From Microcystis aeruginosa NIES-843 (GTDB taxonomy: Bacteria > Cyanobacteriota > Cyanobacteriia > Cyanobacteriales > Microcystaceae): 32,000 nt of DNA. The stretch spans positions 5,400,001-5,432,000 of the forward strand of contig NC_010296.1 in the NCBI RefSeq assembly GCF_000010625.1, in the 5' to 3' direction. The notes under the pieces are model-generated. The model did not search any database and was not told where the DNA came from. It saw nothing but the letters and a program-made list of their open reading frames with translations. Shown here piece by piece: positions 3,006 to 22,572 of this stretch. Within the stretch, counting starts at the first letter, position 1. Every line of letters begins with the position of its first letter. Both the position numbers and the translations under genes were made by a program.

Positions 3006-3214
3006 ACTGCGGGATACTGACTCATATTAAAATATTTAAAGGCTTAAAAATCCAAGTTTTCGTTGTGGGGACTCCCTCGTCAGAAGTCAGTCATCAATAC
3101 CAAATTAAGTTATACTTCATCTTTATGAGAAAGTCTGTCAATTATCCTAATTGCTAAGGAGGTTAAAAATTGAGACATTTCCTAGTAAAAATCTAACTAC
3201 TTTAAATTGAAAAA

Positions 3215-7920: not shown

Positions 7921-8952
7921 ATGATAGAATGGGCATCAGCGAAAGTAGTTTGTGAGCGAAGTGATCCGATGCAGTTCCAAATCCAGCCAGACAGTGAAAT
8001 ACCCGCCTCTAAGCAATTATTTGACCAAATTCGCTTCGCTATCGCCTCTCGTCAGTATCCCCCGGGCCATCGTTTACCTAGTACCCGTCAACTAGCTATG
8101 ATCACGGGATTACACCGTAATACGATAAGTAAAATTTATCAACAACTGGAAGACGATGGGTTAGTGGAATCCATAGCAGGTTCGGGGATTTATGTGAAGG
8201 CTCGCGGGCATGAAAACGATAATTTATTGGGTTCGCCCCTATTGGAACAAAATCCAGAAATAGGCCGACTAATTCGCCAGAGTTTGGCTGGTTTTCTCGC
8301 TCAAGGTTTAACTTTAGAGCAAATTCGCGAGTTATTACTGGCGGAAATCGATTGGCGATCGCAGTGTGGTTCTCAAGTTCTTGTCACCATTCCCCGTCAC
8401 GATTTGGGTGCAGGAAAACTAATGTTGAGAGAATTAGAGCAATCCCTCAAAATTCCCGTCCAATTAGTGGCAATGGAGGATTTAGCCCAAGTTTTAGCCA
8501 ATACTAAATCTGCCACTGTTGTCACCAGTCGCTATTTTATCAGTGTGGCGGAGGAAATTGCCGCTCCTTTTCACCTGCGAGTCATTCCCATCGATATCTA
8601 CGATTACAGCAAGGAATTGGCATTAATCAAAAAATTACCCACCGATAGCCGCTTGGGGATTGTCAGTATTAGCACCGGTATTATTAAGGTGGCCGAAATT
8701 TTAATTCATAGTTTACGGGGCGATGATTTATTAGTTATGTCTGCCCAAATTCATGAAACGGATAAGTTAAAAGTTTTAGCTCGAACTTCCCAGACAATTA
8801 TCAGTGATCAAGCGAGTTATACTTTAATTAAAAATCTGATTAATGAAGTGCGATCGGATTTAATTCGTCTGCCAGAAATTATCTGTAGTGATAATTATAT
8901 TGGGGATAAATCAATTCAATTGCTAAGACGAGAATTAGGATTAGGTGGTTAG
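7921..8952 (+). CDS. GntR-family transcriptional regulator, probably the cyanobacterial PlmA-type subfamily; the true start may be the ATG at 7969
   Basis: N-terminal winged-helix pattern IPASKQLFDQIRFAIASRQYPPGHRLPSTRQLAMITGLHRNTISKIYQQLEDDGLVESIAGSGIYV. The ~250-aa C-terminal domain is unlike the FadR/HutC/MocR effector domains I recognise. The PlmA assignment is from memory of that subfamily's size and phyletic range. Confidence 0.8.
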   Translation: MIEWASAKVVCERSDPMQFQIQPDSEIPASKQLFDQIRFAIASRQYPPGHRLPSTRQLAMITGLHRNTISKIYQQLEDDGLVESIAGSGIYVKARGHENDNLLGSPLLEQNPEIGRLIRQSLAGFLAQGLTLEQIRELLLAEIDWRSQCGSQVLVTIPRHDLGAGKLMLRELEQSLKIPVQLVAMEDLAQVLANTKSATVVTSRYFISVAEEIAAPFHLRVIPIDIYDYSKELALIKKLPTDSRLGIVSISTGIIKVAEILIHSLRGDDLLVMSAQIHETDKLKVLARTSQTIISDQASYTLIKNLINEVRSDLIRLPEIICSDNYIGDKSIQLLRRELGLGG

Positions 8953-9058
8953 AGGATAAGCTAGGACACATTTTAACCGCTAAATCTCTCCCAATCCCTT
9001 TACTGTTACCTCTTGCCTTATCTCAACAAGCAATTTAAGTAGGGAGGCACAATTATTT

Positions 9059-9123
9059 GTAGGATGGGTTAGCGGTAGCGTAACCCATGCTGGCGTTGGG
9101 TTTCATGCTTCAACCCAACCTAC
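9059..9123. repeat. Small nested-palindrome element (dispersed-repeat/MITE-like)
   Basis: gtagg-a-[gggtta gcggtagcg taaccc]-atgctggc-[gttgggtt tcatgcttc aacccaac]-ctac. Two internal hairpins are enclosed by the outer inverted arms gtagg/cctac. It is intergenic, with no ORF. Confidence 0.5.
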
Positions 9124-9329
9124 GTTCATCTTATATTTAATTCCACTCACCCACTTAAATGCGCGGGCGGCTGAACTTTAAAATTTATTTTAGTCTATGG
9201 TTACTATTGACAATAACTTAGAGCAAATCGAGAATAAAAGCGAAAAAAACTTTTAGGAAGTATTAAATTTTTAGTACAATGGCGAAAGAATAGGGACAAG
9301 CTCAATTTTTCACTCTCGAACGAGGCTAA

Positions 9330-10448
9330 ATGAAAAGTGCTGACTGTTTAACGGTATCCCCCGGGGAACCGCTTACCGATTGGCAAAAACTGGGATTAGA
9401 TTTGGTGGCTCGTTGGCAGGGACGAGATGTTATCCTAGCGATCGATCTTACCGGTAGTGTTAACTTTAATGATGAAGGACGCACGCGCCTTGGTCAAATT
9501 ATTCGCGATAGTTTAAAAAATAACGATTCGGTTTATTTAGTACCCTTTGCTGATAATGTCCAACCGATTGAAGAACCGATTTTAATTCGCGGAAGGGAAG
9601 ATATAGACGCGGTTTTAAAAGCGATTCCCTGGCAATCTAGCCAAAGTGCTAAAAATACCGATATTCAGCGCGCAGAATGGCACGTTTATCCCCGACTGGC
9701 ACGCTTAAATCAGTGTCGTTTAACTGCCAATCAAGCTATCAAACCCCAGTCGGTAGTTTGGATTACCGATGCACCCCTTTCTACCGCTGCGGGGATTACT
9801 TCCCAACAGTGGATAGAAACCCCAAAAAATAGCCCTTTTCGTCTTGCTAATTCTCCCGAAAGTTTGGAGAGACAAAACTGGCTTAATTCCCTACCAATTA
9901 ATCTAAGAACCCAAGAAATTACCGCCACTAACGGCAATAAATATAAACTATCAGTGGTCGATATTGCTCCCACAGCACAAGAGTTTTGCACTCCCGCACC
10001 GGGAGGACAGGAAACCTGTTTGATTAATTCTTATCTCTTGAGTCAGTTATGGTTGCCAGCATTGGCAATTACATTAATGGGAATTGGGGGAATAGTAGCG
10101 AGTATTTTGGGAATTCGTCATTGGTTGCTGTTAAATACTGCTTGGACTATTAAAGTCTCATCTAATGATGATGAGAATGAAATACAAAGATATACCCTAA
10201 AAACATCCCAAAGAATTAACATCGGTGGGGAAGGAGTTAATACCATTGATTGTCCGGGAGAAGAAACCCGTTGTTATTTAGAAAGACGCGGCAATCAGTT
10301 ATATCTGAAACCCAGTAAACAAGCAGAGATTTTTTATCGAGGTAATCAACTAACTCAGGAGGTGAAGATAGATAAAAATTACCTGACTTTAACCTATCAC
10401 CATAACCATCAAGATTTCGACCTACAAATTCAGATTAGGAAAAAATAA
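9330..10448 (+). CDS. vWA-domain membrane protein with a C-terminal beta-rich (weakly FHA-like) domain
   Basis: 372-aa ORF. DVILAIDLTGSVNF (MIDAS-like DxTxS), SVYLVPFADNV and VVWITDAPLS fit the vWA strand pattern (aa ~33-215). One TM helix, LWLPALAITLMGIGGIVASILGI (aa ~240-262). The C-terminal ~100 aa read RINIGGEG..IDCPG...CYLERRGNQLYLKP...IFYRGNQL, which is FHA-like in spacing but lacks the canonical Arg/Ser/His. Confidence 0.6.
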   Translation: MKSADCLTVSPGEPLTDWQKLGLDLVARWQGRDVILAIDLTGSVNFNDEGRTRLGQIIRDSLKNNDSVYLVPFADNVQPIEEPILIRGREDIDAVLKAIPWQSSQSAKNTDIQRAEWHVYPRLARLNQCRLTANQAIKPQSVVWITDAPLSTAAGITSQQWIETPKNSPFRLANSPESLERQNWLNSLPINLRTQEITATNGNKYKLSVVDIAPTAQEFCTPAPGGQETCLINSYLLSQLWLPALAITLMGIGGIVASILGIRHWLLLNTAWTIKVSSNDDENEIQRYTLKTSQRINIGGEGVNTIDCPGEETRCYLERRGNQLYLKPSKQAEIFYRGNQLTQEVKIDKNYLTLTYHHNHQDFDLQIQIRKK

Positions 10449-10466
10449 CTTCAGGAGATTTAAACC

Positions 10467-13400
10467 ATGGCTAACACCAGTCAAACCCGCGCTATCAAAC
10501 GGACAATTATCATCGGATTAGGTGGTACTGGTCGAGATGTGTTGATGAGAATTCGTCGCTTTATTATTGATAAATACGGGAAGTTATCTAACCTACCCGT
10601 TGTCAGTTTTGTTCATATTGACACAGATAAAAATGCTTTCAATGGTTCGGGTTTACCCACAGGAAATAGCTATCACGGAGAAGAAATTATTCTATCAGCT
10701 GCCGAAAGAGTATTCATTAATATGAATGCTCAGGATGTTAACAATCTCACCTATGAACTTGAACACCAAACCCTTTTTGAAAGTCCCTTTTCCCATATTG
10801 AAAGCTGGTTAGACCCAAGGCTAAAAAAACAAATAACTTCCATTGAAAATGGTGCGGGGGGTATTCGTCCCGTCGGTCGTTTAGCTTTCTTCCATAACTA
10901 TCAAAAAATTCAAGAGGCAATTGAAGCAGCGGAAAGACGAACTTCTGGTCATGAATCCTTTATGTTTAGCGGTAAAGTTAATGGTCAAAGTTTTAATGTC
11001 CAAGAGGGTTTAAATGTCTTTGTTGTCGGTTCTTTGTGTGGGGGAACTGGTAGCGGTATTTTCCTCGATGTGGCCTACACTTTGCGTCATATTTTACAAC
11101 AAACCGCCGAATATACATCCTTTGGTTATTTGGTAATTAGTCCTAAACTTTATGGTGATGGTGCAATTATGAGAGCTAATACCTATGCAGCTTTGAAAGA
11201 GTTAGATCATTATACCAATGAAAGTAATTCCTTTCAAGTCTGTTATGATAAACAAAATTTCGTCAACATCGATGAAAAACGTTCTCCTTTTGATTTTGCC
11301 TACTTAGTTTCTAATCGCACTGCGGGAGATTACCGGATTAATAACAAAGGTAAATTATGTAATGTCATTGCTTACAAGATTTTCTTGGATTTTGCCGATG
11401 AGTTATCTCCTCGCATCAAAGGCAATCGGGATAACTATAAAAACTCGATGATTAGTCCAGATAATCATCCTTTTCAGATGTGTCAAGGTTATATGTCCTT
11501 TGGACTAGCGAGGATTTATTTTACTCGCGACCGAATTGTGCAGATTGGTCTCAATCGTTTTACGCTCAAGTTAATTAAATTTTGGTTAGAGGGATACGGT
11601 CAAAGTCCCAGTGGACAAGAGTTATTAAGTAAGTTCCTAGCTAATTGGAGTACCCAAAGTAATAAGGATTATTTTACTGCCAGATTGGAAGAAGCAACCC
11701 TAGAGAATAATAAAACTTTTTCTAAGACTTTAACCTCTTGGAAAAATTCCCTAGAGGAAGAAATATCTAATAGTCAAGATTTGGAGAATTTACCCCAAAC
11801 CGTCAAGCAATCCCTAGAAAAAGAGTTTCGCAAAGTACAGGGGGGAGAAACAGATAGCAGTCGCGGAATCTGGTTAACTCTGACCCAACAAACTCAACCT
11901 AAATTAATCGAAAAATTTAAGTCAGATATTGACCAATTTTTGGAGATTCTTCTTAATCCTGATAGCTTAGAATTTTCTTTGGAAAATAGCCTATCTTTTT
12001 TGGTCGCTTTACAAGTACAGATTAATACCTACAAGGGTAATCTAGAGGAATTATCTCAGGATAATAAAGGGTTTCATTCCTCGGAAAAAATTGATAACAT
12101 TTGGCGAAATGTTAAACAAACTCTCGAAGATATAAACGGGAAAAAGTCTGTCTTCAAGATGTTCAGTAAAAATGCCAATAGCGAGAAAATCAAAGCTGAG
12201 TTAAGAGACTACGTTCAAAGCGGACAAAAATTAATTCAGCATAACTTTAATTTCAGCATCAATGGGGAATCCAGAAAGATTGTTGAAGCGATTCTCAAGC
12301 ATATTTCTAGTCGAATGCTGCAGATACAACAACTGAAAGAAACCCTATATCAGCTAATCACAGAATACGATAAATACGAACAGGAGTTAATGCAGTTAAA
12401 TCTCGACGAGATGACTGGGGAAGCTATTTTCCCAGAGGAGAATATTGATAACTGTATCCCTGACAGTAACTCCCGAACTCAATACATTTCCGTTAGCCAA
12501 AAAGTCACCAATAATTTAGGCTATAATACTTCCCTATTCAGTTTATTTAGCCAATCTTTTGTTATTGATAATGAAACTCTCAAAGAGAACCTAACAGCAA
12601 CAATCGAGAAACAGTTTCAATCAGTAAGCACTAATAAAATTGATGCAGTAATTAAGCGATTTATGGGTCAATATAAACCCCATGATTTTCCTGAACGTTT
12701 GGCGCAAATTTTGCGAGAAGCTGATTTAATGTTACCGATAAATGTTAATGATGCTTACTATCGCTTGCATCCAGATAAAAAATTACTAATTGGGACTAAG
12801 GACGATAATTCACCCACCATGCAAAGATTTATGAAGACTATTGAATCTGATTTAAATATTAATCGGGGGACTTCTTTTGAATCAATTCAAACGGACGAAG
12901 AAATCCTAATTACCTACGAGTTTGGTGGGTTTCCCCTAAGAATCATTACTGATTTATCTGGGTTACAAAAAATCTATCAAGACCAAAAGAGAATCAGCAT
13001 TTTACATAATGATTACAGGATAGATTTTGCTGATATTATCCCACCACCTGCCAAATTAATTGAGGAATTAGAGTTTATTTTCTATCCCGCAATTGCTCTC
13101 GGTTTACTAGAATACGATGAGGAAGATGATACTTATCAATTAGTCATCGAAGGCGATTTATTTAACAATAAGTCCATCATTGACATTAGCGGTAATTGGC
13201 GACTTGCTTTAGAACAATTTGCTTCTCGTAAGGACATGATTAATGCTTTGCAGGTACTGCTTAATCAGGCAAAAAATGAGATTTTGGCTAATCCTCCTCT
13301 ATTATTTACTAACGAGGGTGATTATTTCCAGAAGGTCAGCTATTTTGTCAACAATGTCAAAAATTTACCCGACCATCACCCCAATTATCGCTACAAAGAT

Positions 13401-13616
13401 AAGGTAGTTGGACAAGATGGAAATCATATACAGGAGGCAAAAGAAGGAATTATCACCCGTTTTGTTAATCAACTGAAAATGGAACTAGAAAAACGTGCTG
13501 CTGAACAGAAAAAACTCGAAAAACAACAGCAAAAGCAACAAACTTTACTGGGAACAAATAATAACAGTAGTCAACCCAGTTTACCCGCAGAGATTAGCAC
13601 TGCTGATGAATTGTAA
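10467..13616 (+). CDS. Tubulin/FtsZ-superfamily GTPase-like protein with a ~750-aa non-tubulin extension
   Basis: 1049-aa ORF; AGGAG sits ~10 nt upstream. IIIGLGGTGRDV (T1-like), ENGAGGIRPVGRLAFF (T3-like) and VFVVGSLCGGTGSGIFLDVAY (aa 192-197 GGTGSG, matching the tubulin signature GGGTGSG). The remainder is helical or coiled, with a Gln-rich tract and a disordered tail ending in ADEL. Confidence 0.75.
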   Translation: MANTSQTRAIKRTIIIGLGGTGRDVLMRIRRFIIDKYGKLSNLPVVSFVHIDTDKNAFNGSGLPTGNSYHGEEIILSAAERVFINMNAQDVNNLTYELEHQTLFESPFSHIESWLDPRLKKQITSIENGAGGIRPVGRLAFFHNYQKIQEAIEAAERRTSGHESFMFSGKVNGQSFNVQEGLNVFVVGSLCGGTGSGIFLDVAYTLRHILQQTAEYTSFGYLVISPKLYGDGAIMRANTYAALKELDHYTNESNSFQVCYDKQNFVNIDEKRSPFDFAYLVSNRTAGDYRINNKGKLCNVIAYKIFLDFADELSPRIKGNRDNYKNSMISPDNHPFQMCQGYMSFGLARIYFTRDRIVQIGLNRFTLKLIKFWLEGYGQSPSGQELLSKFLANWSTQSNKDYFTARLEEATLENNKTFSKTLTSWKNSLEEEISNSQDLENLPQTVKQSLEKEFRKVQGGETDSSRGIWLTLTQQTQPKLIEKFKSDIDQFLEILLNPDSLEFSLENSLSFLVALQVQINTYKGNLEELSQDNKGFHSSEKIDNIWRNVKQTLEDINGKKSVFKMFSKNANSEKIKAELRDYVQSGQKLIQHNFNFSINGESRKIVEAILKHISSRMLQIQQLKETLYQLITEYDKYEQELMQLNLDEMTGEAIFPEENIDNCIPDSNSRTQYISVSQKVTNNLGYNTSLFSLFSQSFVIDNETLKENLTATIEKQFQSVSTNKIDAVIKRFMGQYKPHDFPERLAQILREADLMLPINVNDAYYRLHPDKKLLIGTKDDNSPTMQRFMKTIESDLNINRGTSFESIQTDEEILITYEFGGFPLRIITDLSGLQKIYQDQKRISILHNDYRIDFADIIPPPAKLIEELEFIFYPAIALGLLEYDEEDDTYQLVIEGDLFNNKSIIDISGNWRLALEQFASRKDMINALQVLLNQAKNEILANPPLLFTNEGDYFQKVSYFVNNVKNLPDHHPNYRYKDKVVGQDGNHIQEAKEGIITRFVNQLKMELEKRAAEQKKLEKQQQKQQTLLGTNNNSSQPSLPAEISTADEL

Positions 13617-13633
13617 AATTAATCAATCTTAAT

Positions 13634-13663
13634 AATGTTTCCCCAGCTATCTGAGGAAACATT
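13634..13663 (+). other. Intercistronic stem-loop (9-bp stem, 12-nt loop) between the tubulin-like and MotA-like genes
   Basis: aatgtttcc (13634..13642) pairs perfectly with ggaaacatt (13655..13663). No U-tract follows, so it is probably not a strong intrinsic terminator. It could be a processing or stability element. Confidence 0.3.
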
Positions 13664-13713
13664 CACCCCCAACTCTCTCTATCAACCACAATTCGAGGTA
13701 TCCAATAACTATC

Positions 13714-15375
13714 ATGGCATTATTTAACCTTTTTCCTCCCTATCTGATTGTTTTAACTCTAGTCTTGGTTATTTTTCCCACCGTCTTAGCTGTGGGAATC
13801 CGGATGACTCTCTATAAATATCTCCAAGATTCAACTGTAAAAGTCAAGGGTTTAATTCCGGGAACAAGTCTCAAGGGTTCACCTAAAATTATTTCTAATC
13901 TAGAGAATAGATTTAAGATAGCCAGTAGTCAACTAGATGATGTTAATACCGCAGCTTTGGTGGATGGTTTATACCATGAAGAAAAATTTACTTTCATGTC
14001 TAAATCCCTCAGCTGCGAGAAATGGGATTATTTTGTGAGAGTGTTACCCAATCTCCTCCTCGCTTTTGGTTTGTTGGGAACTTTCTTCGGAATTACTCTC
14101 AATCTGACGGGAATCAGCACACTTATCGATATCAATAATGTCGATATGCAAAGTTTGGGAGAAAAGCTCAAAACTCCCCTAGAAAGTATGGGGATTGCTT
14201 TTATCACTAGCTTAATTGGTTTAGCTTGTAGTTCTTTACTGACTGTGATTAACTTAATCTTTAACACCAACCTTGCTAAAGTAAATCTAATTAGTTCCCT
14301 AGAAGACTATTTAGATAACATCTTGCAGCCGACTGTAGAAGGGAATAGTCGCTTGGATAAAGCGGTTAATCGCATGGTGGATACACAGAAAGCATTTCTG
14401 ACTAACTTTCATAGCGAGGTGACGAGAGTATTAGAATCTTCTTTAGAGAAAGTTGCTAAAGAAATTGCTGATGGTAATCAGGAAACCGCTAAGTTAGTCA
14501 CCCAGGTTTGTGAAAGATTAACTGAAACTGCGGGAACCTTATCTACCGGTGCGACGACTTTTCAGCGTTCAGCTTTTGAACTTAACGAGCAAGTACCAAT
14601 TATCACGCAAGCAAACCGAGAGTTTACACAATCCTCTCAGGAACTAAAAAATAGTGTACTGCTTTTTAAACAAGCATCAGAGTTAATTGAAAAAAGTAAC
14701 TTCTCTGGTAATATCGAAAGGTTTACCGCTAGTTTAGCAGAAACCCAAGGAAGATTCTCTCAATCCACTGCAATACTAGAGCAGAATATCGGGGAGATTA
14801 TCAGCAGTAATAAAAGAGCTAACGATTTAGCAGAACAAGTGTATTTAAATATCCAAGAATCTTCTCAAAAATTACAAAATAGTGCGCTAGGTTTTCTGGA
14901 AGCTTCCGAAAAAATCGAAAGTAGTCAATTTGCCAATAAGTTAGTGCAAGCAACCGCAGATTTAATGACTGCTCATCAACAGTTTGCCGATTCTACTACA
15001 GATTTAAACCAATCAACTCAATCTCTAGCTTCTTTAACTCAAGACTTCCACCGTTCAATGACAACTATGGTTGAGTTAGGAATAAAAATTACTGACTTGA
15101 ATCAAAAATCTGAGACAATCCTAGAACAAAATCAGCAACGCTCAGTCACCGAACAAGAAAAGTTATCTAACATCCAGGGAGAATTAGTAAAATTAATCGA
15201 AACCGTGAAAACCTATCAAGACAGTTTTAACTCCGAGTCGAAACAATTAGGAAACCAACTTATCAATAGTCTCGAGGAAAAACTCCCCCAAACCTCCGAT
15301 AAAATCCTCACTGCTTCCCATGGCATTGAGCGCTCTAGTAATAATCTCGATCACCGAACAAGAAAAGTTATCTAA
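13714..15375 (+). CDS. MotA/TolQ/ExbB-family channel protein with a long helical tail (ZorA-like); N-terminal fragment of a gene interrupted by a frameshifting duplication
   Basis: 553-aa ORF. N-terminal TM helix (YLIVLTLVLVIFPTVLAVGI), then LLLAFGLLGTFFGITLNL and MGIAFITSLIGLACSSLLTVINLIF, matching the conserved GLLGT..G and A..T..GL helices of MotA/ExbB/TolQ. The rest is helical repeat sequence. The ORF ends at a TAA (15373..15375) 22 nt past the junction of a perfect 205-bp duplication. Confidence 0.75.
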   Translation: MALFNLFPPYLIVLTLVLVIFPTVLAVGIRMTLYKYLQDSTVKVKGLIPGTSLKGSPKIISNLENRFKIASSQLDDVNTAALVDGLYHEEKFTFMSKSLSCEKWDYFVRVLPNLLLAFGLLGTFFGITLNLTGISTLIDINNVDMQSLGEKLKTPLESMGIAFITSLIGLACSSLLTVINLIFNTNLAKVNLISSLEDYLDNILQPTVEGNSRLDKAVNRMVDTQKAFLTNFHSEVTRVLESSLEKVAKEIADGNQETAKLVTQVCERLTETAGTLSTGATTFQRSAFELNEQVPIITQANREFTQSSQELKNSVLLFKQASELIEKSNFSGNIERFTASLAETQGRFSQSTAILEQNIGEIISSNKRANDLAEQVYLNIQESSQKLQNSALGFLEASEKIESSQFANKLVQATADLMTAHQQFADSTTDLNQSTQSLASLTQDFHRSMTTMVELGIKITDLNQKSETILEQNQQRSVTEQEKLSNIQGELVKLIETVKTYQDSFNSESKQLGNQLINSLEEKLPQTSDKILTASHGIERSSNNLDHRTRKVI

Positions 15376-16679
15376 CATCCAGGGAGAATTAGTAAAATTA
15401 ATCGAAACCGTGAAAACCTATCAAGACAGTTTTAACTCCGAGTCGAAACAATTAGGAAACCAACTTATCAATAGTCTCGAGGAAAAACTCCCCCAAACCT
15501 CCGATAAAATCCTCACTGCTTCCCATGGCATTGAGCGCTCTAGTAATAATCTCGATGTGACTAATGCTAACTTGTCTCAGTTAATTGATACAGTGACAGA
15601 GCAACTTACTCAAGTCTCTGAGACAATCCTAGAACAAAATCAGCAACGCTTAGTCACCGAACAAGAAAAGTTATCTAACATCCAGGGAGAATTAGTAAAA
15701 TTAATCGAAACCGTGAAAACCTATCAAGACAGCTTTAACTCCGAGTCGAAACAATTAGGCAATCAACTTATCAATCGTCTTGAGCAAAGACTCTCCCAAA
15801 CCTCCGATAAAATTCTCACTGCTTCCCATGGGATTGAGCGCTCTAGTAATAATCCAGAGGTGACTAATGCTAACTTGTCTGAGTTAATTGATACAGTGAC
15901 AGAGCAAGTTACTCAAGTCAAGGAAGGCTTACAGTCTGAGTTAAACCAATCAACTCAATCTCTAGCTTCTTTAACTCAAGACTTCCAGCGTTCAATGACA
16001 ACTATGGTTGAGTTAGGAATAAAAATTACTGACTTGAATCAAAAATCTGAGACAATCCTAGAACAAAATCAGCAACGCTTAGTCACCGAACAAGAAAAGT
16101 TATCTAACATCCAGGGAGAATTAGTAAAATTAATCGAAACTGTGAAAACCTATCAAGACAGTTTTAACTCCGAGTCGAAACAATTAGGAAACCAACTTAT
16201 CAATCGTCTTGAGCAAAGACTCTCCCAAACCTCCGATACAATTCTCACTGCTTCCCATGGGATTGAGCGCTCTAGTAATAATCTCGATGTGACTAATGCT
16301 AACCTGTCTCAGTTAATTGATACAGTGACAGAGCAAGTTACTCAAGTCTCTGAGAAAATCCTAGAACAGAATCAGCAACGCTCAGTCACCGAACAAGAAA
16401 AGTTATCTAACATCCAAGGAGAATTAGTAAAATTAATCGAAACTGTGAAAACCTATCAAGACAGTTTTAACTCCGAGTCGAAACAATTAGGAAACCAACT
16501 TATCAATAGTCTCGAGCAAAGACTCTCCCAAACCTCCGATAAAATCCTCACTGCTTCCAATGCAGTTGAGCGCTCTAGTAATAATCTCGATGTGACTAAT
16601 GCTAACCTGTCTCAGTTAATTGATACAGTGACAGAGCAAGTTACTCAAGTCAAGGAAAGCTTACAGTCTGAGTTAAACC
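15004..16679 (+). repeat. Near-identical 732-nt (244-codon) super-repeat, two copies, each made of a 429-nt and a 303-nt subunit
   Basis: ttaaaccaatcaactcaatctctagc recurs at 15004 and 15941 (spacing 937 = 732+205), and ttaaacc recurs at 16673 (spacing 732). The caccgaacaagaaaag subunit starts at 15147, 15352, 15655, 16084 and 16387 (later spacings 429 and 303). Confidence 0.9.
15147..15556 (+). repeat. Perfect 205-bp tandem duplication (15147..15351 and 15352..15556)
   Basis: Both copies read caccgaacaagaaaagttatctaacatccaggg...gcgctctagtaataatctcgat with no mismatch that I could find. 205 is not a multiple of 3. Confidence 0.9.
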
Positions 16680-17257
16680 TTTTAAGCAATAACTTAGGGA
16701 TGGTAGTTGATGATAAATTAACTAAGAACTCAGAACAATTAAAAGCAGTTTCCCAATCTATTGAGAAAACAGCCAATCAATTTGGCAGCCTTAAATCAGA
16801 TTTTTCTCAAGTAATTAACGCGGTGAACACCAACACCAGTCAATTAACCGCTAACTTAGAATCTTTGCGAGATAAGTTAGAGAAAGTTATCGCTAAGGAA
16901 AATAAATCGAATCAGAAAATGATTGAACACATCTATGGAGAAATTCAAAAATGTTTAGCAGAACTGGAGAAAATTAACGATATGCGTTCTGACTTTTCTA
17001 ATTTAAATGATAAGATAGAAAAACTTTTTGAGACAATCCCTAATCCTGCTCAAAAAAATGTTCAGGATGACATTTATAAGTTAAATAAGAAGTTGGAAGA
17101 ACTTAAAAAACTTTTTGAGACAATCCCTAATCCTACTAAAAAAGATGTTCAGTCTGACTTTTCTAACTTAAAGGATAAGATAGAAAAACTTTGTGAGACA
17201 ATCCCTAATCCTACTCAAAAAGATGTTCTGGATGACATTAACACCCTATTTGAATAA
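15320..17257 (+). CDS. C-terminal tail fragment of the same MotA/ZorA-like gene (+1 frame relative to 13714..15375)
   Basis: 645-aa ORF. Its first 11 codons (MALSALVIISI) are an out-of-frame reading of duplication copy 1. From 15352 it reads the same repeat sequence as the upstream ORF (TEQEKLSNIQGELVKLIETVKTYQDSF...). Removing one 205-bp copy fuses 13714..17257 into a single 1112-codon ORF (3544-205 = 3339 nt = 1112 codons plus stop). Confidence 0.7.
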   Translation: MALSALVIISITEQEKLSNIQGELVKLIETVKTYQDSFNSESKQLGNQLINSLEEKLPQTSDKILTASHGIERSSNNLDVTNANLSQLIDTVTEQLTQVSETILEQNQQRLVTEQEKLSNIQGELVKLIETVKTYQDSFNSESKQLGNQLINRLEQRLSQTSDKILTASHGIERSSNNPEVTNANLSELIDTVTEQVTQVKEGLQSELNQSTQSLASLTQDFQRSMTTMVELGIKITDLNQKSETILEQNQQRLVTEQEKLSNIQGELVKLIETVKTYQDSFNSESKQLGNQLINRLEQRLSQTSDTILTASHGIERSSNNLDVTNANLSQLIDTVTEQVTQVSEKILEQNQQRSVTEQEKLSNIQGELVKLIETVKTYQDSFNSESKQLGNQLINSLEQRLSQTSDKILTASNAVERSSNNLDVTNANLSQLIDTVTEQVTQVKESLQSELNLLSNNLGMVVDDKLTKNSEQLKAVSQSIEKTANQFGSLKSDFSQVINAVNTNTSQLTANLESLRDKLEKVIAKENKSNQKMIEHIYGEIQKCLAELEKINDMRSDFSNLNDKIEKLFETIPNPAQKNVQDDIYKLNKKLEELKKLFETIPNPTKKDVQSDFSNLKDKIEKLCETIPNPTQKDVLDDINTLFE

Positions 17258-17279
17258 CTTCACCAACATATAAGTAACT

Positions 17280-17921
17280 ATGTCTAGACGTACCTACTAC
17301 CGAGATGAAGATAAATCGGTGGATGTTTATCCCGCATTTACCGATTTAATGTCCAATGCTTTCATGATTCTGAGTTTATTTCTCCTCTTGGCACTTTTTC
17401 AGTCCTATAATCTCATCAGCAAACTGGAGGAAGCTAACCGAAAACTGCAAACAGCAACCCCGATAGTTATCGATGAAAAATCAGGAAAATTCAAATTTCA
17501 GTCGGGAAGTGCTGAATTAAACCCTGCTTTAAAAACCTATATTCGTCAGCGCATTATTCCCGCTATCGAAACCATTACCAAAGACAGAGAAATCGACTTT
17601 ATTCAAGTAATTGGACACACCGATGGACAGGGAATACAAAAGACAAGTAATCTCGATAAAAATATCGAATCGGTTGCCAGCAGAAAACAATCTGTTAAAA
17701 TGCTAGTACCCGGTTCTAACACTGATTTAGGATTAATGCGAGCTTTAGCAGTAGTGCAAGAAATCGAAAACACAGGTAAACTCAAAAACGTCAAATTTCG
17801 AGCTTTTTCCGCAGGACAGTTATACCTCCCATCGGGTAACTTAGCTGCGGTTAATCGTGACGCAGATGCAAGCAGACGCAGAATTGAAATCCGTTTTATT
17901 CCCCCTGGTAGAAAACAATAA
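17280..17921 (+). CDS. MotB/OmpA-like stator partner (ZorB-like): N-terminal TM helix with a conserved Asp, plus an OmpA-type peptidoglycan-binding domain
   Basis: 213-aa ORF starting 22 nt after the tail gene. YPAFTDLMSNAFMILSLFLLLALF carries Asp22 (gat, 17343..17345) at the position of the protonatable MotB Asp. The C-terminal part reads VIGHTDGQG...DLGLMRALAVVQEI...RRRIEIRF, the OmpA-like pattern. Confidence 0.8.
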   Translation: MSRRTYYRDEDKSVDVYPAFTDLMSNAFMILSLFLLLALFQSYNLISKLEEANRKLQTATPIVIDEKSGKFKFQSGSAELNPALKTYIRQRIIPAIETITKDREIDFIQVIGHTDGQGIQKTSNLDKNIESVASRKQSVKMLVPGSNTDLGLMRALAVVQEIENTGKLKNVKFRAFSAGQLYLPSGNLAAVNRDADASRRRIEIRFIPPGRKQ

Positions 17922-18000
17922 GACAAAAAAATTCTAGAAATTTGTTTTTTTATCTTTTGCTTGTTACACTGAGGAAAGAACGAAATTCAAATCAATATCT

Positions 18001-18234
18001 ATGGAACAAAACACTTTAGAGGGGACTTGGGAAGAAATTTTACAGCATAGTGCTAAATTAGCAGGTCAGCGAGTGAGATTGACCATTCTACCTAATCAAT
18101 CTTCCAATTCTTCCACTCCAGAAACCCTAGACCAAAAATTAAAAGGAAGAGTTGGACGAGTTTATTTTCAGCCATCAGATTTATCTGAGCGAGTAGAAGA
18201 AGTTTTTACAAATATTTTAGATGATAAAGACTAA
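18001..18234 (+). CDS. Putative antitoxin of the downstream PIN toxin
   Basis: 77-aa ORF ending 14 nt before the PIN gene. I recognise no DNA-binding motif, so the call is positional only. Confidence 0.45.
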   Translation: MEQNTLEGTWEEILQHSAKLAGQRVRLTILPNQSSNSSTPETLDQKLKGRVGRVYFQPSDLSERVEEVFTNILDDKD

Positions 18235-18248
18235 TCAGCATTACATCA

Positions 18249-18656
18249 ATGACTCTTTGCGACGCTTCTCCACTTATTGCCTTAATTAATGAAGCTGATA
18301 AAAATCATCAGCGTTGTGTTGACATTTTATCTTCGCTATCGGCCCCCCTTGTCACGACTTGCGCTTGTTTTACCGAAGCAATGTATTTATTGCGTCGATA
18401 TGGTGGTTGGTTCGCACAACAAGAATTATGGGGTTATGTGGTAGATGAAATACTGGTAATACACCATCATAATTCAGATGAACTAAAAAGAATGGAAACC
18501 TTAATGATACAATATCAAGATGTTCCTATGGATTTAGCAGATGCTTCTTTAGTAGCCATGGCTGAAGTTCTTAATCAAAAACAAATATTCACTCTCGATA
18601 GCGATTTCTATATTTACCGACGGTATGGAAATCAACCTTTTGAGGTTGTACCTTAA
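18249..18656 (+). CDS. PIN-domain ribonuclease toxin (VapC-like)
   Basis: 135-aa ORF with four acidic PIN positions in the expected spacing: MTLCDASPLIAL, CFTEAMYLL, DLADASLVAMAE, FTLDSDF. Confidence 0.85.
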   Translation: MTLCDASPLIALINEADKNHQRCVDILSSLSAPLVTTCACFTEAMYLLRRYGGWFAQQELWGYVVDEILVIHHHNSDELKRMETLMIQYQDVPMDLADASLVAMAEVLNQKQIFTLDSDFYIYRRYGNQPFEVVP

Positions 18657-18670
18657 TTATTTTTCATTCC

Positions 18671-19231
18671 CTAGAGGGTGACATCCTCGTATAAATCCCG
18701 AAAAGATGCCTTCAGATTAATACTCTGCAAACTAAAACTTTCTTCCTGATAGGTTTGCAGAATCCATAAACCCTGTTCACCCCGTCGAAAAGTTTCCACT
18801 CGTTGGTGTTTACTATTCACTAAGACATATTCCTCTAAACTTTCTAGAGTTTGATAATCATTAAATTTATCACCCCTGTCAAAAGCTTCTGTGGAATCGG
18901 AGAGAACTTCGATAATCAATTTAGGAAAACTTTTGTAGGTAGCGGTTTCTCTATCTCTGTTATCGCAGGTGACAATAATATCAGGATAATAAAAGTGATT
19001 GCGTTTCTCTAATCTGACTTTCACATCGGCAAAATAAACCCGACAATCGGAACCCCGCAAATGATTACGAATGAGAAAAGTGAAATTGAGTCCGATAATA
19101 TTATGAGTATCCGTTGTCCCTGCCATGGCGTAAACTTGTCCATCGATATATTCATGTTTAATGGGACTTTTTTCTTCAAACTGAAGATATTCTTCTGGAG
19201 TGAGATTATTATAGTTAGATAAAGCAATCAT
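18671..19231 (-). CDS. Uma2-family (DUF820) PD-(D/E)xK endonuclease, copy 1
   Basis: 186-aa ORF. EEYLQFEEKSPIKHEYIDGQVYAMAGTTDTHN...YFADVKVRL...YPDIIVTCD...PKLIIEVLSDST...DRGDKFNDYQTL..LEEYVLV is the typical Uma2 pattern. Confidence 0.85.
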   Translation of the reverse strand: MIALSNYNNLTPEEYLQFEEKSPIKHEYIDGQVYAMAGTTDTHNIIGLNFTFLIRNHLRGSDCRVYFADVKVRLEKRNHFYYPDIIVTCDNRDRETATYKSFPKLIIEVLSDSTEAFDRGDKFNDYQTLESLEEYVLVNSKHQRVETFRRGEQGLWILQTYQEESFSLQSINLKASFRDLYEDVTL

Positions 19232-19257
19232 GGGTTTAATCGTTGAAGGAGATTTTC

Positions 19258-19848
19258 TTAAGTACTTTCGGGAGTATCATTAACCGTTTCTAGGGTGACA
19301 TCCTCGTATAAATCCCGAAAAGATGCCGTCAGATTAATACTCTGTAAACTAAAACTTTCTTGCTGATAGGTTTGCAGAATCCATAAACCCTGTTCACCCC
19401 GTCGAAAAGTTTCTACTCGTTGGTGTTTACTATTCACTAAGACATATTCCTCTAAACTTTCTAGAGTTTGATAATCATTAAATTTATCACCCCTGTCAAA
19501 AGCTTCTGTAGAATCGGAGAGAACTTCGATAATCAATTTAGGAAAACTTTTGTAGGTAGCGGTTTCTCTATCTCTGTCATCGCAGGTGACAATAATATCA
19601 GGATAATAAAAGTGATTGCGCTTCTCTAATCTGACTTTCACATCGGCAAAATAAACCCGACAATCGGAACCCCGCAAATGATTACGAATAATTGTGTATA
19701 TATTCCCCGAAACAATATTATGAGTATCCGTCGTTCCTGCCATGGCGTAAACTTGTCCATCGATATATTCATGTTTAATGGGACTTTTTTCTTCAAACTG
19801 AAGATATTCTTCTGGAGTGAGATTATTATAGTTAGATAAAGCAATCAT
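19258..19848 (-). CDS. Uma2-family (DUF820) PD-(D/E)xK endonuclease, copy 2 (tandem paralog)
   Basis: 196-aa ORF nearly identical to copy 1, offset by 617 bp, except for an 8-codon replaced patch and a 10-aa C-terminal extension. Confidence 0.85.
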   Translation of the reverse strand: MIALSNYNNLTPEEYLQFEEKSPIKHEYIDGQVYAMAGTTDTHNIVSGNIYTIIRNHLRGSDCRVYFADVKVRLEKRNHFYYPDIIVTCDDRDRETATYKSFPKLIIEVLSDSTEAFDRGDKFNDYQTLESLEEYVLVNSKHQRVETFRRGEQGLWILQTYQQESFSLQSINLTASFRDLYEDVTLETVNDTPEST

Positions 19849-20141
19849 CTTTTTTTCTGCTAGTTACAACTATATTTAAGTACCTAGGCAAAATTAATTA
19901 TACATCTAAGCTGTCAGCCTTTTCCGTAATCAGTAAGCAGTATTAAGTAACAGTAACATTCCCTGATTACTGTTCACTGTTCACCGATAACCGAAAAGTC
20001 TCCCCTCTCCCAGTCTCGACTAGGAAATTAACTTTGCAGGACTAGATACCTGTTCAAATACTGTCTAGGAGAACCAGCAAAAAGAGCCTAGAATGGTTAA
20101 TCTATATGCTATTACCCTTGTAACTCTCTATAACTACTGCT

Positions 20142-22061
20142 ATGACAACCCTAATTGACTATTCAAATATTCAATCTTTACCCGAAGTTTGGTCAATAGT
20201 TGCCCAACGTTTCCCCAATATTATCGCCCTGCACGATCCCCACAGTAAACCGGAAGTAATTCTCACCTATCGGGAACTTTATCAACAAATTCAGCAATTT
20301 GCCGCCGCTTTGCAAGCATTAGGAGTCACAGAAACCGAAAATGTCGCTTTATTTGCCGATAATAGTCCCCGGTGGTTTATTGCCGACCAAGGTTCCATGG
20401 CAGCCGGGGCTGCCAATGCGGTACGATCTGCTCAAGCAGATGCAGAGGAATTAGCCTATATTCTGGCCGATAGTGACAGTCAGACGCTGATTGTCGAAAA
20501 TAACAAAACTTTAGGGAAATTACTGGCGAAAATCCCTGAATTGCCCCTAAAATTAATCGTGCTGCTCACCGACGAAGACCCCGCTACTGGGGCGATTTCC
20601 GTGCAGACCTTAAATTTCAAGCAACTAATGGCGATCGGGGCTGAGAACACCCTTAAACCCATCACCAAGAGCGAAAATGATCTGGCTACCCTCATCTACA
20701 CATCGGGAACGACGGGACAACCAAAAGGGGTGATGCTAAGTCACGGTAATCTGCTGCATCAGGTACGCAACTTAAATGCTATCTTTCAACCGGATCCTGG
20801 CGATCGAGTTTTAAGTATACTACCTTCATGGCATTCCTACGAGCGCAGTTGTGAGTATTTCAGTCTAGCTCAGGGTTGCACCCAGATTTATACCAGTATT
20901 CGCACTTTTAAGTCCGATTTAAAGCAATTTAGTCCGCAATTAATGGTGGGAGTTCCCCGTCTTTGGGAATCTCTTTACGAGGGTATCCAAAAACAATTTA
21001 GCGAACAATCGGCCACAAAACAGAAATTAGTGAGATTTTTGCTAGAAAAGTCGGAAAAGTACGTTATTGCTAAACGTATCGCCGATAATCTCAGTCTAGA
21101 TCATCTTCACGCTTCCGAGATCGAAAGACTAAAAGCAAGAATTCAATCCCTCTTACTCTATCCCCTCCATGCCATCGGTGATAAGCTAGTTTATGGCAAA
21201 ATTCGCCAAGCAGTGGGAAATAAAGTTAAAATCTTGGTTAGTGGCGGTGGTTCCTTAGCCAGACATCTAGATACTTTCTATGAGATTGCCGGAATCCCGA
21301 TTTTAGTTGGTTATGGACTGACAGAAACTTCTCCTGTGGCTACCGTCCGTCGTATCGATCATAACCTGCGCGGGTCTGCCGGTCGTCCCGTCTTTCAGAC
21401 AGAAATCTGTATTGTCGATTTACACAGCAAAGAAGTCTTACCGACAGAAAAACACGGTTTAGTCTTGATTCGCGGTCCGCAGGTGATGCAGGGATACTAT
21501 AAAAAACCGGAAGCAACCGAAAAAGCGATTTCTCCCGATGGTTGGTTTGATAGCGGTGATATTGGTTGGTTAACCGCTGCCGGGGATTTAGTCTTAACTG
21601 GACGGGCCAAAGATACAATTGTTTTGAGCAATGGTGAAAATATCGAACCGCAACCGATTGAAGATGCTTGTTTACGCAGTCCCTTTATCTCCCAAATTAT
21701 GCTAGTGGGACAGGATCAAAAAGCTTTGGGGGCTTTGATCGTGCCTAATCTTGATATACTGGCCAATTGGGCGCAAGAACAGAAAATATCCTTAAATTTA
21801 CCCGATCTTCACAGCGATCGCTCAACGATTCTTTCTAGCGATCTCTACAGCAAAAAAGTCTTAGCTCTCTACCAACAAGAATTAAAGCGCGAGGTAAGAA
21901 ATCGGCCCAGTTATCGTACCGATGACCAGATTAAAACCTTTGAGTTAATTTTAGAGCCTTTTTCCCAAGAAAACGGCATGATGACCCAAACTTTAAAGAT
22001 TAAACGACCGGTAGTAACGCAACGCTATCGCGATATGATTAACGAGATGTTTGCCAAGTAA
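20142..22061 (+). CDS. aas: AMP-dependent long-chain fatty acid ligase; in cyanobacteria this single FadD-like gene is the acyl-ACP synthetase
   Basis: 639-aa ORF. AMP-binding motif YTSGTTGQPKGVMLSHGNL, GYGLTETSP, FDSGDIGW, LTGRAKD. The N-terminus resembles my memory of the Synechocystis Slr1609-type Aas. Confidence 0.85.
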   Translation: MTTLIDYSNIQSLPEVWSIVAQRFPNIIALHDPHSKPEVILTYRELYQQIQQFAAALQALGVTETENVALFADNSPRWFIADQGSMAAGAANAVRSAQADAEELAYILADSDSQTLIVENNKTLGKLLAKIPELPLKLIVLLTDEDPATGAISVQTLNFKQLMAIGAENTLKPITKSENDLATLIYTSGTTGQPKGVMLSHGNLLHQVRNLNAIFQPDPGDRVLSILPSWHSYERSCEYFSLAQGCTQIYTSIRTFKSDLKQFSPQLMVGVPRLWESLYEGIQKQFSEQSATKQKLVRFLLEKSEKYVIAKRIADNLSLDHLHASEIERLKARIQSLLLYPLHAIGDKLVYGKIRQAVGNKVKILVSGGGSLARHLDTFYEIAGIPILVGYGLTETSPVATVRRIDHNLRGSAGRPVFQTEICIVDLHSKEVLPTEKHGLVLIRGPQVMQGYYKKPEATEKAISPDGWFDSGDIGWLTAAGDLVLTGRAKDTIVLSNGENIEPQPIEDACLRSPFISQIMLVGQDQKALGALIVPNLDILANWAQEQKISLNLPDLHSDRSTILSSDLYSKKVLALYQQELKREVRNRPSYRTDDQIKTFELILEPFSQENGMMTQTLKIKRPVVTQRYRDMINEMFAK

Positions 22062-22122
22062 ATATTTCTGGCAAATATTCCCTAACCCCTTGACAAAAAG
22101 ACCTTTTTAGGATAAGCAAATC

Positions 22123-22572
22123 ATGGATGACGCACAAACCAGTTTATTACTGAAGCGCCCGGTGACAATTAAAGTCATCGTGACTCCGCGCTGGAAAGAA
22201 GAAGCACAACAGCAATTACAAGCACAAATGGCTCAAATTGACGCACAAATTCAACAATTAGAAACCCAAGGCCAAAGAGCGATCGCCGAAATTCAGCGTC
22301 AGAGTCTGATCCCCTTACCCCCCGCGGCTGCCCAACAGATTGACAATATTCAAATCCAAGTCAATCAACAAAAAAGTGAGTTTCTCGAACAAAAAAACCA
22401 GTATCTGCAACAATTGCAACAGGTACAACTCTTGGAACTCAATCAAGAAGTCGCCCAAGCACAACTAGAAAGCTTTTTCCGGGTCGAAAAAGGCGATAAC
22501 TTAGTAGCCAAAATGAATGTGGAACTCGTCCTTAGAGATGGCGTCGTCGAAGAAATTCGCGGCGAAATTTAA
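22123..22572 (+). CDS. Gln-rich coiled-coil protein, possibly YlqD family
   Basis: 149-aa ORF. KRPVTIKVIVTPRWKEE is followed by a long Q-rich helix and a C-terminal beta segment. The YlqD assignment is from memory only. Confidence 0.6.
   Translation: MDDAQTSLLLKRPVTIKVIVTPRWKEEAQQQLQAQMAQIDAQIQQLETQGQRAIAEIQRQSLIPLPPAAAQQIDNIQIQVNQQKSEFLEQKNQYLQQLQQVQLLELNQEVAQAQLESFFRVEKGDNLVAKMNVELVLRDGVVEEIRGEI

Follow-up and report, generated by a model that had tools for sequence, protein, structure and literature searches.

What an ion-driven motor pair of the kind known from the Zorya anti-phage system might do in an operon with a tubulin-like GTPase is the question raised by a locus of the cyanobacterium Microcystis aeruginosa NIES-843 (assembly GCF_000010625.1). 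The locus lies in a window of 32,000 nucleotides (contig NC_010296.1, positions 5,400,001 to 5,432,000 of the forward strand), the whole stretch of DNA that was analysed and the frame of all coordinates given below unless another locus is named. A first-pass annotation, made from the letters and their open reading frames (ORFs), had proposed four co-directional, closely spaced genes as an undescribed Zorya-like system. The ORF coordinates agree with that layout: the block reads in one direction on the plus strand, with gaps of 18, 97 and 22 nt between its members:

9330-10448, plus strand: gene i (MAE_58760), a protein of 372 aa with a von Willebrand factor A (vWA) domain, a transmembrane (TM) helix and an FHA fold
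10467-13616, plus strand: gene ii (MAE_58770), an FtsZl1/Tubulin_2 protein of 1049 aa
13714-17257, plus strand: gene iii (MAE_58780 and MAE_58790, 'B7'), a ZorA-like A subunit whose frame is broken into ORFs 13714-15375 (553 aa) and 15320-17257 (645 aa)
17280-17921, plus strand: gene iv (MAE_58800), a ZorB-like B subunit of 213 aa

From the evidence set out below we conclude that the quartet is a real cyanobacterial operon, in which a Zorya-type motor pair, predicted to be driven by protons, is combined with a tubulin-like GTPase of divergent sequence and with a membrane protein of the vWA type.

The identity of the motor rests first on gene iii, which we analysed as the 1112-aa protein obtained by repairing its frame. 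Three TM helices are predicted at residues 1-35, 107-134 and 158-185, and the core formed by TM2 and TM3 (residues 106-203) matches the PADLOC ZorA1 model at E=1.2e-15, while the match to Pfam MotA_ExbB (E=0.015) falls below the cut-off. Single-sequence phmmer searches of the PDB with genes iii and iv were too weak to be of use, and profiles of orthologues were needed. With a profile of 23 orthologous motor domains, the only significant PDB matches were ZorA chains (8vvn_C at 2e-6; 8qyh and 8qyd at 3e-4 to 2e-3), and no MotA, ExbB or TolQ chain was found. In addition, T123 and S166 are invariant in the 23 orthologues and align, in a hidden Markov model (HMM) alignment to 8qyh, with Thr147 and Ser184 of EcZorA, the ion-filter residues according to Hu et al. 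(PMC11946911). The motor profile retrieved 2620 representatives at E<=1e-3 and 118 at E<=1e-30 from a library of 1.84 billion proteins; each of the ten more distant motor-domain relatives that were scanned matches a ZorA1, ZorA2 or ZorA3 HMM, which places the gene iii family within the ZorA radiation. The family has diverged enough that the curated NCBIfam ZorA models miss its motor domain, and antiphage_ZorA_3 matches the tail only, at 33.9 bits against a cut-off of 250. Coiled-coil matches of the tail to SMC, JetC, LmuB, DUF1664 and apolipoprotein were treated as compositional. Pfam PF28082.1 is precomputed on some of the ZorA-like homologues (P0143, P0144, P0158, P0166 and others), and the motor domain may already have a family of its own in a recent release of Pfam.

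Gene iv supplies the matching B subunit. A short cytoplasmic N-terminus is followed by a single TM helix (residues 19-47), and the protein is recognised by the ZorB1 model of PADLOC (E=9e-10) and, under the gathering score, by the OmpA model of Pfam (E=1e-4). In the PDB, the orthologue profile finds ZorB chains first (8vvn_B at 4e-6, 8qyd_F at 2e-3), with PomB and MotB weaker. Asp22, invariant within the motif AFTDLMSNAF, takes the position of the essential Asp26 of EcZorB, and its surroundings align with the ZorB N-terminal region of 8vvn_B and 8qyd_F. Equally invariant are the peptidoglycan-binding motifs of the OmpA type (IGHTD, SNxDLGLxRA and RRRIEIRF). Judged by these sequence features, B7 and the OmpA protein make up a pair of ZorA/ZorB type with the architecture and the residues of a peptidoglycan-anchored, Asp-dependent, ion-driven 5:2 motor. 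In ZorB-like proteins of several filamentous genera (e.g. those of loci L019, L045, L068 and L076), a coiled coil of ~40-60 aa is inserted after the TM helix and before the peptidoglycan-binding domain, an addition that is missing from unicellular genera in the alignment; the insertion may track the width of the periplasm or the thickness of the peptidoglycan.

Gene ii matches Pfam Tubulin_2 over its full length (E=8e-101), whereas the classical Pfam Tubulin model is matched below threshold (E=2.9e-5), around the CGGTGSG motif. This glycine-rich GTP-binding signature (C191 to G197; GGGTG[ST]G in the FtsZ/tubulin superfamily) is invariant in 20 orthologues, and homologues are full-length at 42-64% identity throughout the cyanobacteria. 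The secondary structure of an AlphaFold2 (AF2) model outlines a GTPase domain (~14-370), a long helical region (~355-770), a C-terminal alpha/beta domain and an acidic tail. Foldseek returned no PDB match to this model at E<=1e-3; look-alikes such as ClyA-type toxins and dynein stalks were discarded as resemblances between long helices, and an FtsZl1 profile run against PDB sequences gave coiled-coil noise only. The first-pass annotation had called this GTPase a polymer-forming candidate. In the FtsZ/tubulin superfamily, GTP hydrolysis coupled to polymerisation depends on the T7 (synergy) loop and the C-terminal domain. Makarova and Koonin could not recognise the T6-H7 and C-terminal polymerisation elements in FtsZl1 (PMC2875224), and the label is therefore an assumption.

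For gene i, the match to Pfam VWA_2 is weak (E=0.046) and the domain structure emerges from the AF2 model (mean predicted local distance difference test score, pLDDT, 85), in which an N-terminal vWA fold is followed by one TM helix (~239-263) and a C-terminal beta-sandwich (~272-370). Foldseek matched the model to the vWA domains of ITIH1, alpha2delta-1, integrin beta3 and CLCA1; in the orthologue alignment the residues D39-x-T41-x-S43, of the MIDAS type (DxSxS ... T ... D), are invariant, and T110 and D147 nearly so. The sandwich was matched to many FHA domains (among them Rv0020c, Ki67 and KIF13B) at a Foldseek probability of 1.0 and target TM-scores of 0.6-0.7. On the strength of the model, gene i ends in an FHA fold, an eleven-stranded beta-sandwich. 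The assignment came only from structure, since a Pfam scan of 22 orthologues left the C-terminal domain unmatched, with no FHA hit. By inspection of the alignment, G299, R314, R319 and G321-N322 are conserved in this region; of the residues with which FHA domains bind phosphothreonine (Gly-Arg, Ser-x-x-His, Asn-Gly), the canonical Arg next to Gly is not evident, nor are the Ser and the His. Lys and Arg residues flanking the TM helix average 0.7 on its N-terminal side versus 3.5 on its C-terminal side across 52 orthologue sequences; under the positive-inside rule, this would place the FHA fold in the cytoplasm and the vWA domain in the periplasm.

As a description of the four proteins, the first-pass annotation has thus held up well. 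Its vWA-TM-beta-domain protein is borne out by the model and Foldseek, with the beta domain now identifiable as an FHA fold; its tubulin/FtsZ signatures by Tubulin_2 and CGGTGSG; its ZorA/ZorB-like pair with a long helical tail by the PADLOC and PDB profile matches; and its TM Asp and OmpA-type anchor by the invariant Asp22 and the OmpA match. The absence of ZorC/D/E-type partners, also proposed there, agrees with PADLOC, which detected none, and with the lack of any further conserved neighbour.

Conservation of the cassette provides a second line of evidence. A scan of one genome per GTDB species found an FtsZl1 relative in at least 539 species, and the loci analysed are the best 80 of at least 600 stretches. 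All 80 are cyanobacterial and together they represent all major cyanobacterial orders. A survey of their gene neighbourhoods, which the first-pass annotation had suggested, showed that the four genes do co-occur across many genomes: they are present in single copy, in the same order and on the same strand, at 64 of the 80 loci, most of the others being short contigs, and FtsZl1 stands alone at two (L074 and L080; Geminocystis and Aphanothece). Carriers include both motile filamentous and non-motile unicellular genera. No fifth conserved gene was found, the best cluster of flanking genes reaching 14 of 64 loci and representing lineage synteny within the Nostocales. The 148 nearest flanking genes, taken from 47 loci, are mostly housekeeping genes (ABC transporters, sigma-70, Ycf48, AMP-binding enzymes, DnaJ and phycobilisome proteins), and only a handful are real defence-type matches. 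PADLOC matches to MzaA, AriA, mad3 and mad8 among them were read as generic-domain matches, with member counts equal to the ABC-transporter and sigma-70 Pfam counts of the same proteins; the two scans were compared by these counts rather than protein by protein. A neighbour-joining tree of FtsZl1, built without bootstrap, recovers Nostocales, Microcoleaceae, Trichodesmium plus Okeania, Pleurocapsales and Microcystaceae as clades. No orthologue was found on PLSDB plasmids (only paralogues, at <=31% identity) or in phage records. Conserved order, a tree that follows taxonomy, housekeeping flanks and the lack of plasmid or phage orthologues together point to an old, self-contained module that has been inherited mostly vertically in cyanobacteria, rather than to a mobile defence island.

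The claim that the system was undescribed does not survive. Makarova and Koonin (2010, Biol Direct 5:33, PMC2875224) defined the FtsZl1 family and proposed a 'multicomponent membrane remodeling system' from FtsZl1, vWA, GTPase and OmpA-family proteins. Their Additional file 5 lists MAE_58760 (vWA, COG2304, 372 aa), MAE_58770 (FtsZl1, 5410467..5413616, 1049 aa), MAE_58780 and MAE_58790 (B7), and MAE_58800 (COG1360, OmpA family, end 5417921) (PMC2875224). Adding 5,400,000 to positions in the window gives exactly these coordinates, so the exact neighbourhood, MAE_58760 to MAE_58800 as vWA-FtsZl1-B7-B7-COG1360, was catalogued in 2010; comparative-genomic work on membrane-remodelling operons, which the first-pass annotation had mentioned, does exist and covers it (PMC2875224). 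The same quartet was given for Anabaena variabilis, Cyanothece PCC 8802 and Trichodesmium (PMC2875224). In that paper B7 is no more than a 'membrane-associated protein', the OmpA protein counts as a membrane protein of beta-barrel type, and MotA does not occur in the main text (PMC2875224). The gene starts deposited in 2007 (MAE_58780 at 13804, MAE_58800 at 17364) omit TM1 of the A subunit and the Asp22 TM helix of the B subunit, while the conserved N-termini of orthologues place the true starts at 13714 and 17280; the shortened starts probably hid the stator-like nature of both proteins. A full-text literature search found no paper joining Zorya, ZorA or ZorB with tubulin or FtsZ, nor one on these locus tags, nor any experiment on protection against phage, although coverage was incomplete and the result is one of absence of evidence only. 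Within the limits of the literature that could be searched, two findings are new: the identification of B7 with the OmpA protein as a ZorAB-type motor, and the FHA fold at the end of the vWA protein.

Among described systems, the cassette is the cyanobacterial form of the FtsZl1-centred operon, vWA - FtsZl1 - B7 - OmpA/COG1360 (PMC2875224). With Zorya types I-III it shares an A subunit of three TM helices that continues into a long helical tail in the cytoplasm, a neighbouring B subunit that has the essential TM Asp and an OmpA-like peptidoglycan-binding domain, and Thr/Ser at the ion-filter positions, and ZorA and ZorB chains are the best PDB sequence relatives of its A and B subunits. Zorya types I-III, however, consist of ZorAB with ZorCD, ZorE or ZorFG (Hu et al. 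2024 Nature, PMC11946911; Mariano et al. 2025, PMC11890865), whereas the cassette lacks ZorC, D, E, F and G and has instead, upstream, a tubulin-like GTPase and a vWA/FHA membrane protein. PADLOC left genes i and ii unmatched, and no soluble partner of Zorya type is a conserved neighbour in the 64 loci. Further differences are its scores below the NCBIfam ZorA cut-offs, its vertical inheritance, and a housekeeping context in place of a defence island.

A second set of relatives comes from Kaur, Burroughs, Iyer and Aravind (2020, eLife), who described GAP1-N2 GTPase-centric tubulin-vWA neighbourhoods of Firmicutes and Actinobacteria as conflict systems and mentioned neither MotA nor Zorya (PMC7159879). 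These share with the cassette an FtsZl1-type tubulin with a C-terminal coiled-coil/helical domain and membrane vWA proteins, one of them fused to an uncharacterised beta-rich domain (PMC7159879); the cassette, in contrast, has no GAP1-type TRAFAC (P-loop) GTPase, FNIII-repeat protein or HSP70, and has the ZorAB-like motor instead. Like MotAB/PomAB and ExbBD/TolQR, the motor has a 5:2-type channel core (the TM2-TM3 hairpin) and a TM Asp in the B subunit, with an OmpA-like domain as in MotB/PomB, but its A subunit has three TM helices versus the four of MotA and a long C-terminal tail, and there is no MotB-type plug or linker. The pairing of a tubulin-superfamily GTPase gene with that of a possible membrane tether recalls FtsZ and its tethers (FtsA, ZipA, SepF), a likeness drawn only from the 18-nt spacing of genes i and ii. 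Unlike FtsZ, FtsZl1 lacks recognisable T6-H7 and FtsZ_C elements and has ~680 extra residues, and conventional FtsZ is present elsewhere in these genomes (PMC2875224); given both points, a role for FtsZl1 in division is unlikely. Finally, Sulfolobus ArnA (FHA) and ArnB (vWA) also combine the two folds, and ArnAB appears among the structural matches of gene i (Foldseek rank 47, weak, E=1.2e-2); gene i differs in holding both folds in one polypeptide, split by a TM helix, and no kinase occurs in the cassette.

The giant tail, which the first-pass annotation had treated as defining, is specific to NIES-843 and is not a family trait. Three repeat features account for its length and for the broken frame of gene iii:

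15146-15350 and 15351-15555, plus strand: exact 205-bp tandem duplication (205/205 identity; Tandem Repeats Finder period 205, 2.0 copies, 100%), which shifts the frame of gene iii
15351-16685, plus strand: array of 303-nt (101-aa) tail repeats at 87-96% identity, with four full units in NIES-843 versus one in related Microcystis
16976-17239, plus strand: short repeats of ~78-87 nt ('ETIPNP.QKDV') at the tail tip, three in NIES-843 versus one in related Microcystis

Deleting one 205-bp copy in silico restores a single gene iii ORF of 1112 aa, exactly as had been proposed. The duplication is absent from other Microcystis, including a complete genome, where the gene is intact and encodes 734-738 aa; in other genera ZorA-like proteins range from 395 aa (Merismopedia) to ~820 aa, with a family median of 556 aa. 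The cytoplasmic helical tail accordingly measures ~920 aa in the repaired NIES-843 protein, compared with ~350 aa at the family median, and the giant version is a strain-specific repeat expansion by tandem duplications. Its latest step, the 205-bp copy at 100% identity, is either a gene inactivation or an assembly error; unless the latter holds, the NIES-843 system is probably impaired by this very recent frameshift. From its sequence, the truncated 553-aa product would retain the motor and ~360 aa of tail but end short of the tip. How deletion of the tail tip affects effector co-localisation has been assayed in E. coli Zorya (PMC11946911).

The immediate surroundings of the cassette are less uniform than the cassette itself. 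Within the window, GC content is ~0.35-0.39 in the block versus ~0.42-0.47 in most flanking windows, and the highly iterated palindrome HIP1 (GCGATCGC) has no site in 8363-21813 (13.4 kb) and six elsewhere. Even though inheritance of the cassette looks vertical, this HIP1-free, low-GC stretch may reflect coiled-coil-coding composition or a replacement that happened earlier. Upstream of gene i lies one promoter-like element:

9207-9235, plus strand: promoter-like site TTGACA-17 nt-GAGAAT, ~95 nt upstream of gene i, a consensus match only and weak evidence

Such consensus matches are fewer in this region than in its shuffles. Further upstream, at 1611-5168, a C5 cytosine DNA methylase (1611-3005), an N4/N6 DNA methylase (3215-4108) and an overlapping 401-aa ORF unmatched in Pfam (3963-5168) together resemble a restriction-modification cluster, whose genes also precede the cassette in a 96%-identical Microcystis contig (L004). 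Downstream, two tandem Uma2 genes on the minus strand (18001-19848 region) follow two small plus-strand ORFs of 77 and 135 aa (18001-18656), which gave no PIN hit at E<=0.05 and no antitoxin hit. The 96%-identical contig lacks the whole 18001-19848 block and has hisD after the cassette instead. Genes for an AMP-binding enzyme and for YlqD occur near the cassette in two genera, downstream in Microcystis (20142-22572) and upstream and divergent in Kamptonema (L002 6169-8665), a proximity that could be residual synteny or coincidence. The local context on which the first-pass annotation had built its case for accessory or defence status is therefore confirmed in part: the AT-rich composition, the missing HIP1 sites and the Uma2 genes stand, and the PIN toxin-antitoxin pair is unconfirmed. 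As a general argument for a defence island it fails, given the relative that lacks the toxin-antitoxin/Uma2 block, the housekeeping flanks of 47 loci and the tree that follows taxonomy.

Relatives beyond cyanobacteria bear on how tightly motor and GTPase belong together. On plasmid 2 of Deinococcus deserti (L087 5315-14556), FtsZl1 is followed by a ZorA-like protein of 411 aa (ZorA1 1.6e-7; hhalign probability 94.5 against the cyanobacterial motor profile) and an OmpA protein of 200 aa (ZorB 9e-6), the latter with the shared aFsDLM motif. For the Deinococcus operons, Additional file 5 gives 'MotA/TolQ/ExbB membrane protein' as the GenBank name of a neighbour of FtsZl1 and OmpA (PMC2875224). 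The link between FtsZl1 and a ZorAB-like pair thus extends to two phyla. At the D. deserti locus, two small hypothetical genes lie on the other side of FtsZl1, an 859-aa protein (labelled LRR, for leucine-rich repeat, in the 2010 table; PMC2875224) and a beta-helix repeat protein come after OmpA, and a vWA gene is absent. In Planctomycetes, FHA-domain genes adjoin FtsZl1, which is there also fused to a kinase (PMC2875224); the proximity of the FHA genes fits a contact between FHA and FtsZl1. Conversely, Pleurocapsa sp. PCC 7319 (L085 8001-9998) has a lone, closely paralogous motor pair, a ZorA-like protein of 368 aa and a ZorB-like protein of 286 aa (hhalign E=9e-75 against the cassette B profile), which adjoins DUF3038 and DUF4335 genes and has neither FtsZl1 nor vWA. 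Similar ZorA-like proteins of 363-369 aa are numerous in Pleurocapsales, and NCBI labels some of them 'methyl-accepting chemotaxis protein'.

How, then, might the four products work together? By analogy with Zorya, a B-subunit dimer would be anchored to peptidoglycan, proton flow via Asp22 and the Thr123/Ser166 path would rotate the A pentamer together with its tail, and the tail would relay the signal to a cytoplasmic partner, which here would be the FtsZl1 GTPase in place of a nuclease. The single-pass vWA/FHA protein, by analogy with FtsZ tethers, would hold FtsZl1 at the membrane, with the FHA fold probably turned toward FtsZl1 in the cytoplasm and the vWA/MIDAS domain possibly facing the periplasm. 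The system would answer a perturbation of the envelope with GTP-dependent assembly or remodelling, carried out locally at the inner membrane. No nuclease or other known effector is recognisable in the cassette, and vertical inheritance together with the housekeeping context leads us to favour envelope maintenance, damage response or membrane remodelling over mobile immunity. We regard the complete picture, an envelope-anchored motor signalling to a membrane-tethered FtsZl1 scaffold, as tentative, with a chance just short of even. A more far-reaching reading, direct control of a tubulin-superfamily protein by a ZorAB-type rotary motor through the rotating tail, whether mechanically or allosterically, across the cyanobacterial envelope, is more doubtful still.

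Several points weigh against this picture. The 5:2 stoichiometry, rotation, contact between tail and FtsZl1 and polymerisation of FtsZl1 are all things that we infer, and for the last of these the missing T6-H7 and C-terminal polymerisation elements have been noted above. The N-terminal ORF of gene iii, which encodes the motor domain, is unmatched by NCBIfam at E<=0.1. The AF2 model of gene ii, built from a 20-sequence alignment, has a mean pLDDT of 64 and a poor GTPase domain (30-70). The topology of gene i is ambiguous, in that the positive-inside rule puts the vWA domain outside, yet a signal peptide is absent. The stand-alone pair of Pleurocapsa indicates that the motor has no strict need for FtsZl1. 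Anti-phage defence is the sole known role of ZorAB (PMC11946911), tubulin-vWA systems have been classed as conflict systems (PMC7159879), and the block in NIES-843 is AT-rich and HIP1-free. Finally, a triad of vWA, FtsZl1 and a 679-aa protein lies inside a defence island on plasmid pMtWR-220 of Meiothermus taiwanensis (L088 142-13338), with HmaC (AAA+/DUF499) and PDC-S01 on one side and the BrxL Lon-like protease on the other; the FtsZl1 there is of a different subfamily (910-aa-type), and the third gene of the triad is hypothetical.

The last of these points are also those from which the strongest competing explanation draws, namely that the cassette is an anti-phage system and in effect a new Zorya type. 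A ZorAB-like motor would sense envelope damage caused by phage and activate FtsZl1 with the vWA/FHA protein as a non-nuclease effector, for example by a polymer that blocks DNA entry, by membrane sealing or by cell arrest. The ZorAB-like identity speaks for it, as all known ZorAB systems are defensive (PMC11946911), as do the conflict-system class of Kaur et al. 2020 (PMC7159879), the position of the related Meiothermus triad between HmaC/PDC-S01 and BrxL, the plasmid location of Deinococcus versions, and, in the window, the restriction-modification-like cluster upstream, the Uma2 genes downstream and the composition of the AT-rich, HIP1-free block. Variation of the tail between strains and pseudogenisation of gene iii point the same way. 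However, neither a recognisable nuclease or effector nor a PADLOC match for genes i and ii was found, the FtsZl1 tree matches taxonomy across the orders of cyanobacteria, 64 of 80 loci have the cassette in a stable, single-copy arrangement, the neighbours are housekeeping genes with few real defence matches, orthologues are lacking on plasmids and phages, and the toxin-antitoxin/Uma2 block is missing from the 96%-identical relative. An immune function seems to us a serious, if unlikely, explanation.

Less probable again is that the motor powers a process of the outer envelope, as ExbBD/TolQR, GldLM and AglRQS do (outer-membrane integrity, secretion, gliding or exopolysaccharide export), with FtsZl1 and the vWA protein as track or scaffold. 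Membership of the same 5:2 motor superfamily, a B subunit predicted to be anchored to peptidoglycan, a possibly periplasmic vWA domain, wide conservation with vertical inheritance, and the existence of a stand-alone paralogous motor pair would all suit such a role. The profiles, however, match ZorAB and not ExbB, TolQ or MotA chains, no conserved TonB-, TolA- or GldM-like partner or outer-membrane component occurs nearby, and the carriers are both motile filamentous and non-motile unicellular organisms. The cytoplasmic location of the long tail also disfavours this role, since it implies an output directed inward.

It is very improbable that the cassette consists of two independent modules, vWA-FtsZl1 and the ZorAB-like pair, that are merely adjacent: FtsZl1 does stand alone at L074 and L080 and as MAE_54080, tll1020 and Cyan7425_3752 (PMC2875224), the motor pair does so in Pleurocapsa PCC 7319, and the largest gap of the cassette, 97 nt, divides the two pairs, but order and strand are constant at 64 of 80 loci of all major orders despite non-conserved flanks, and FtsZl1, ZorA-like and OmpA genes are adjacent in Deinococcus as well.

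For NIES-843 itself, the window is of lower practical value, as the cluster had been catalogued earlier and its motor gene is frameshifted; the significance lies with the family. If direct control of FtsZl1 by the motor were true, the cassette would be the first case among prokaryotes in which an ion-driven motor is coupled to a cytoskeletal GTPase for a cellular, non-immune purpose, or it would add a fourth type to Zorya, with a cytoskeletal polymer instead of a nuclease as its effector; under the former option, Zorya immunity would have been exapted from, or into, such a machine. A ZorAB-type motor in the FtsZl1 operon joins two problems, the function of FtsZl1, which has stood since 2010, and that of ZorAB, known only as a nuclease-recruiting anti-phage sensor and motor. 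Overall, the function of FtsZl1 and non-canonical motors of the Zorya type, including roles beyond immunity, thereby become directly testable.

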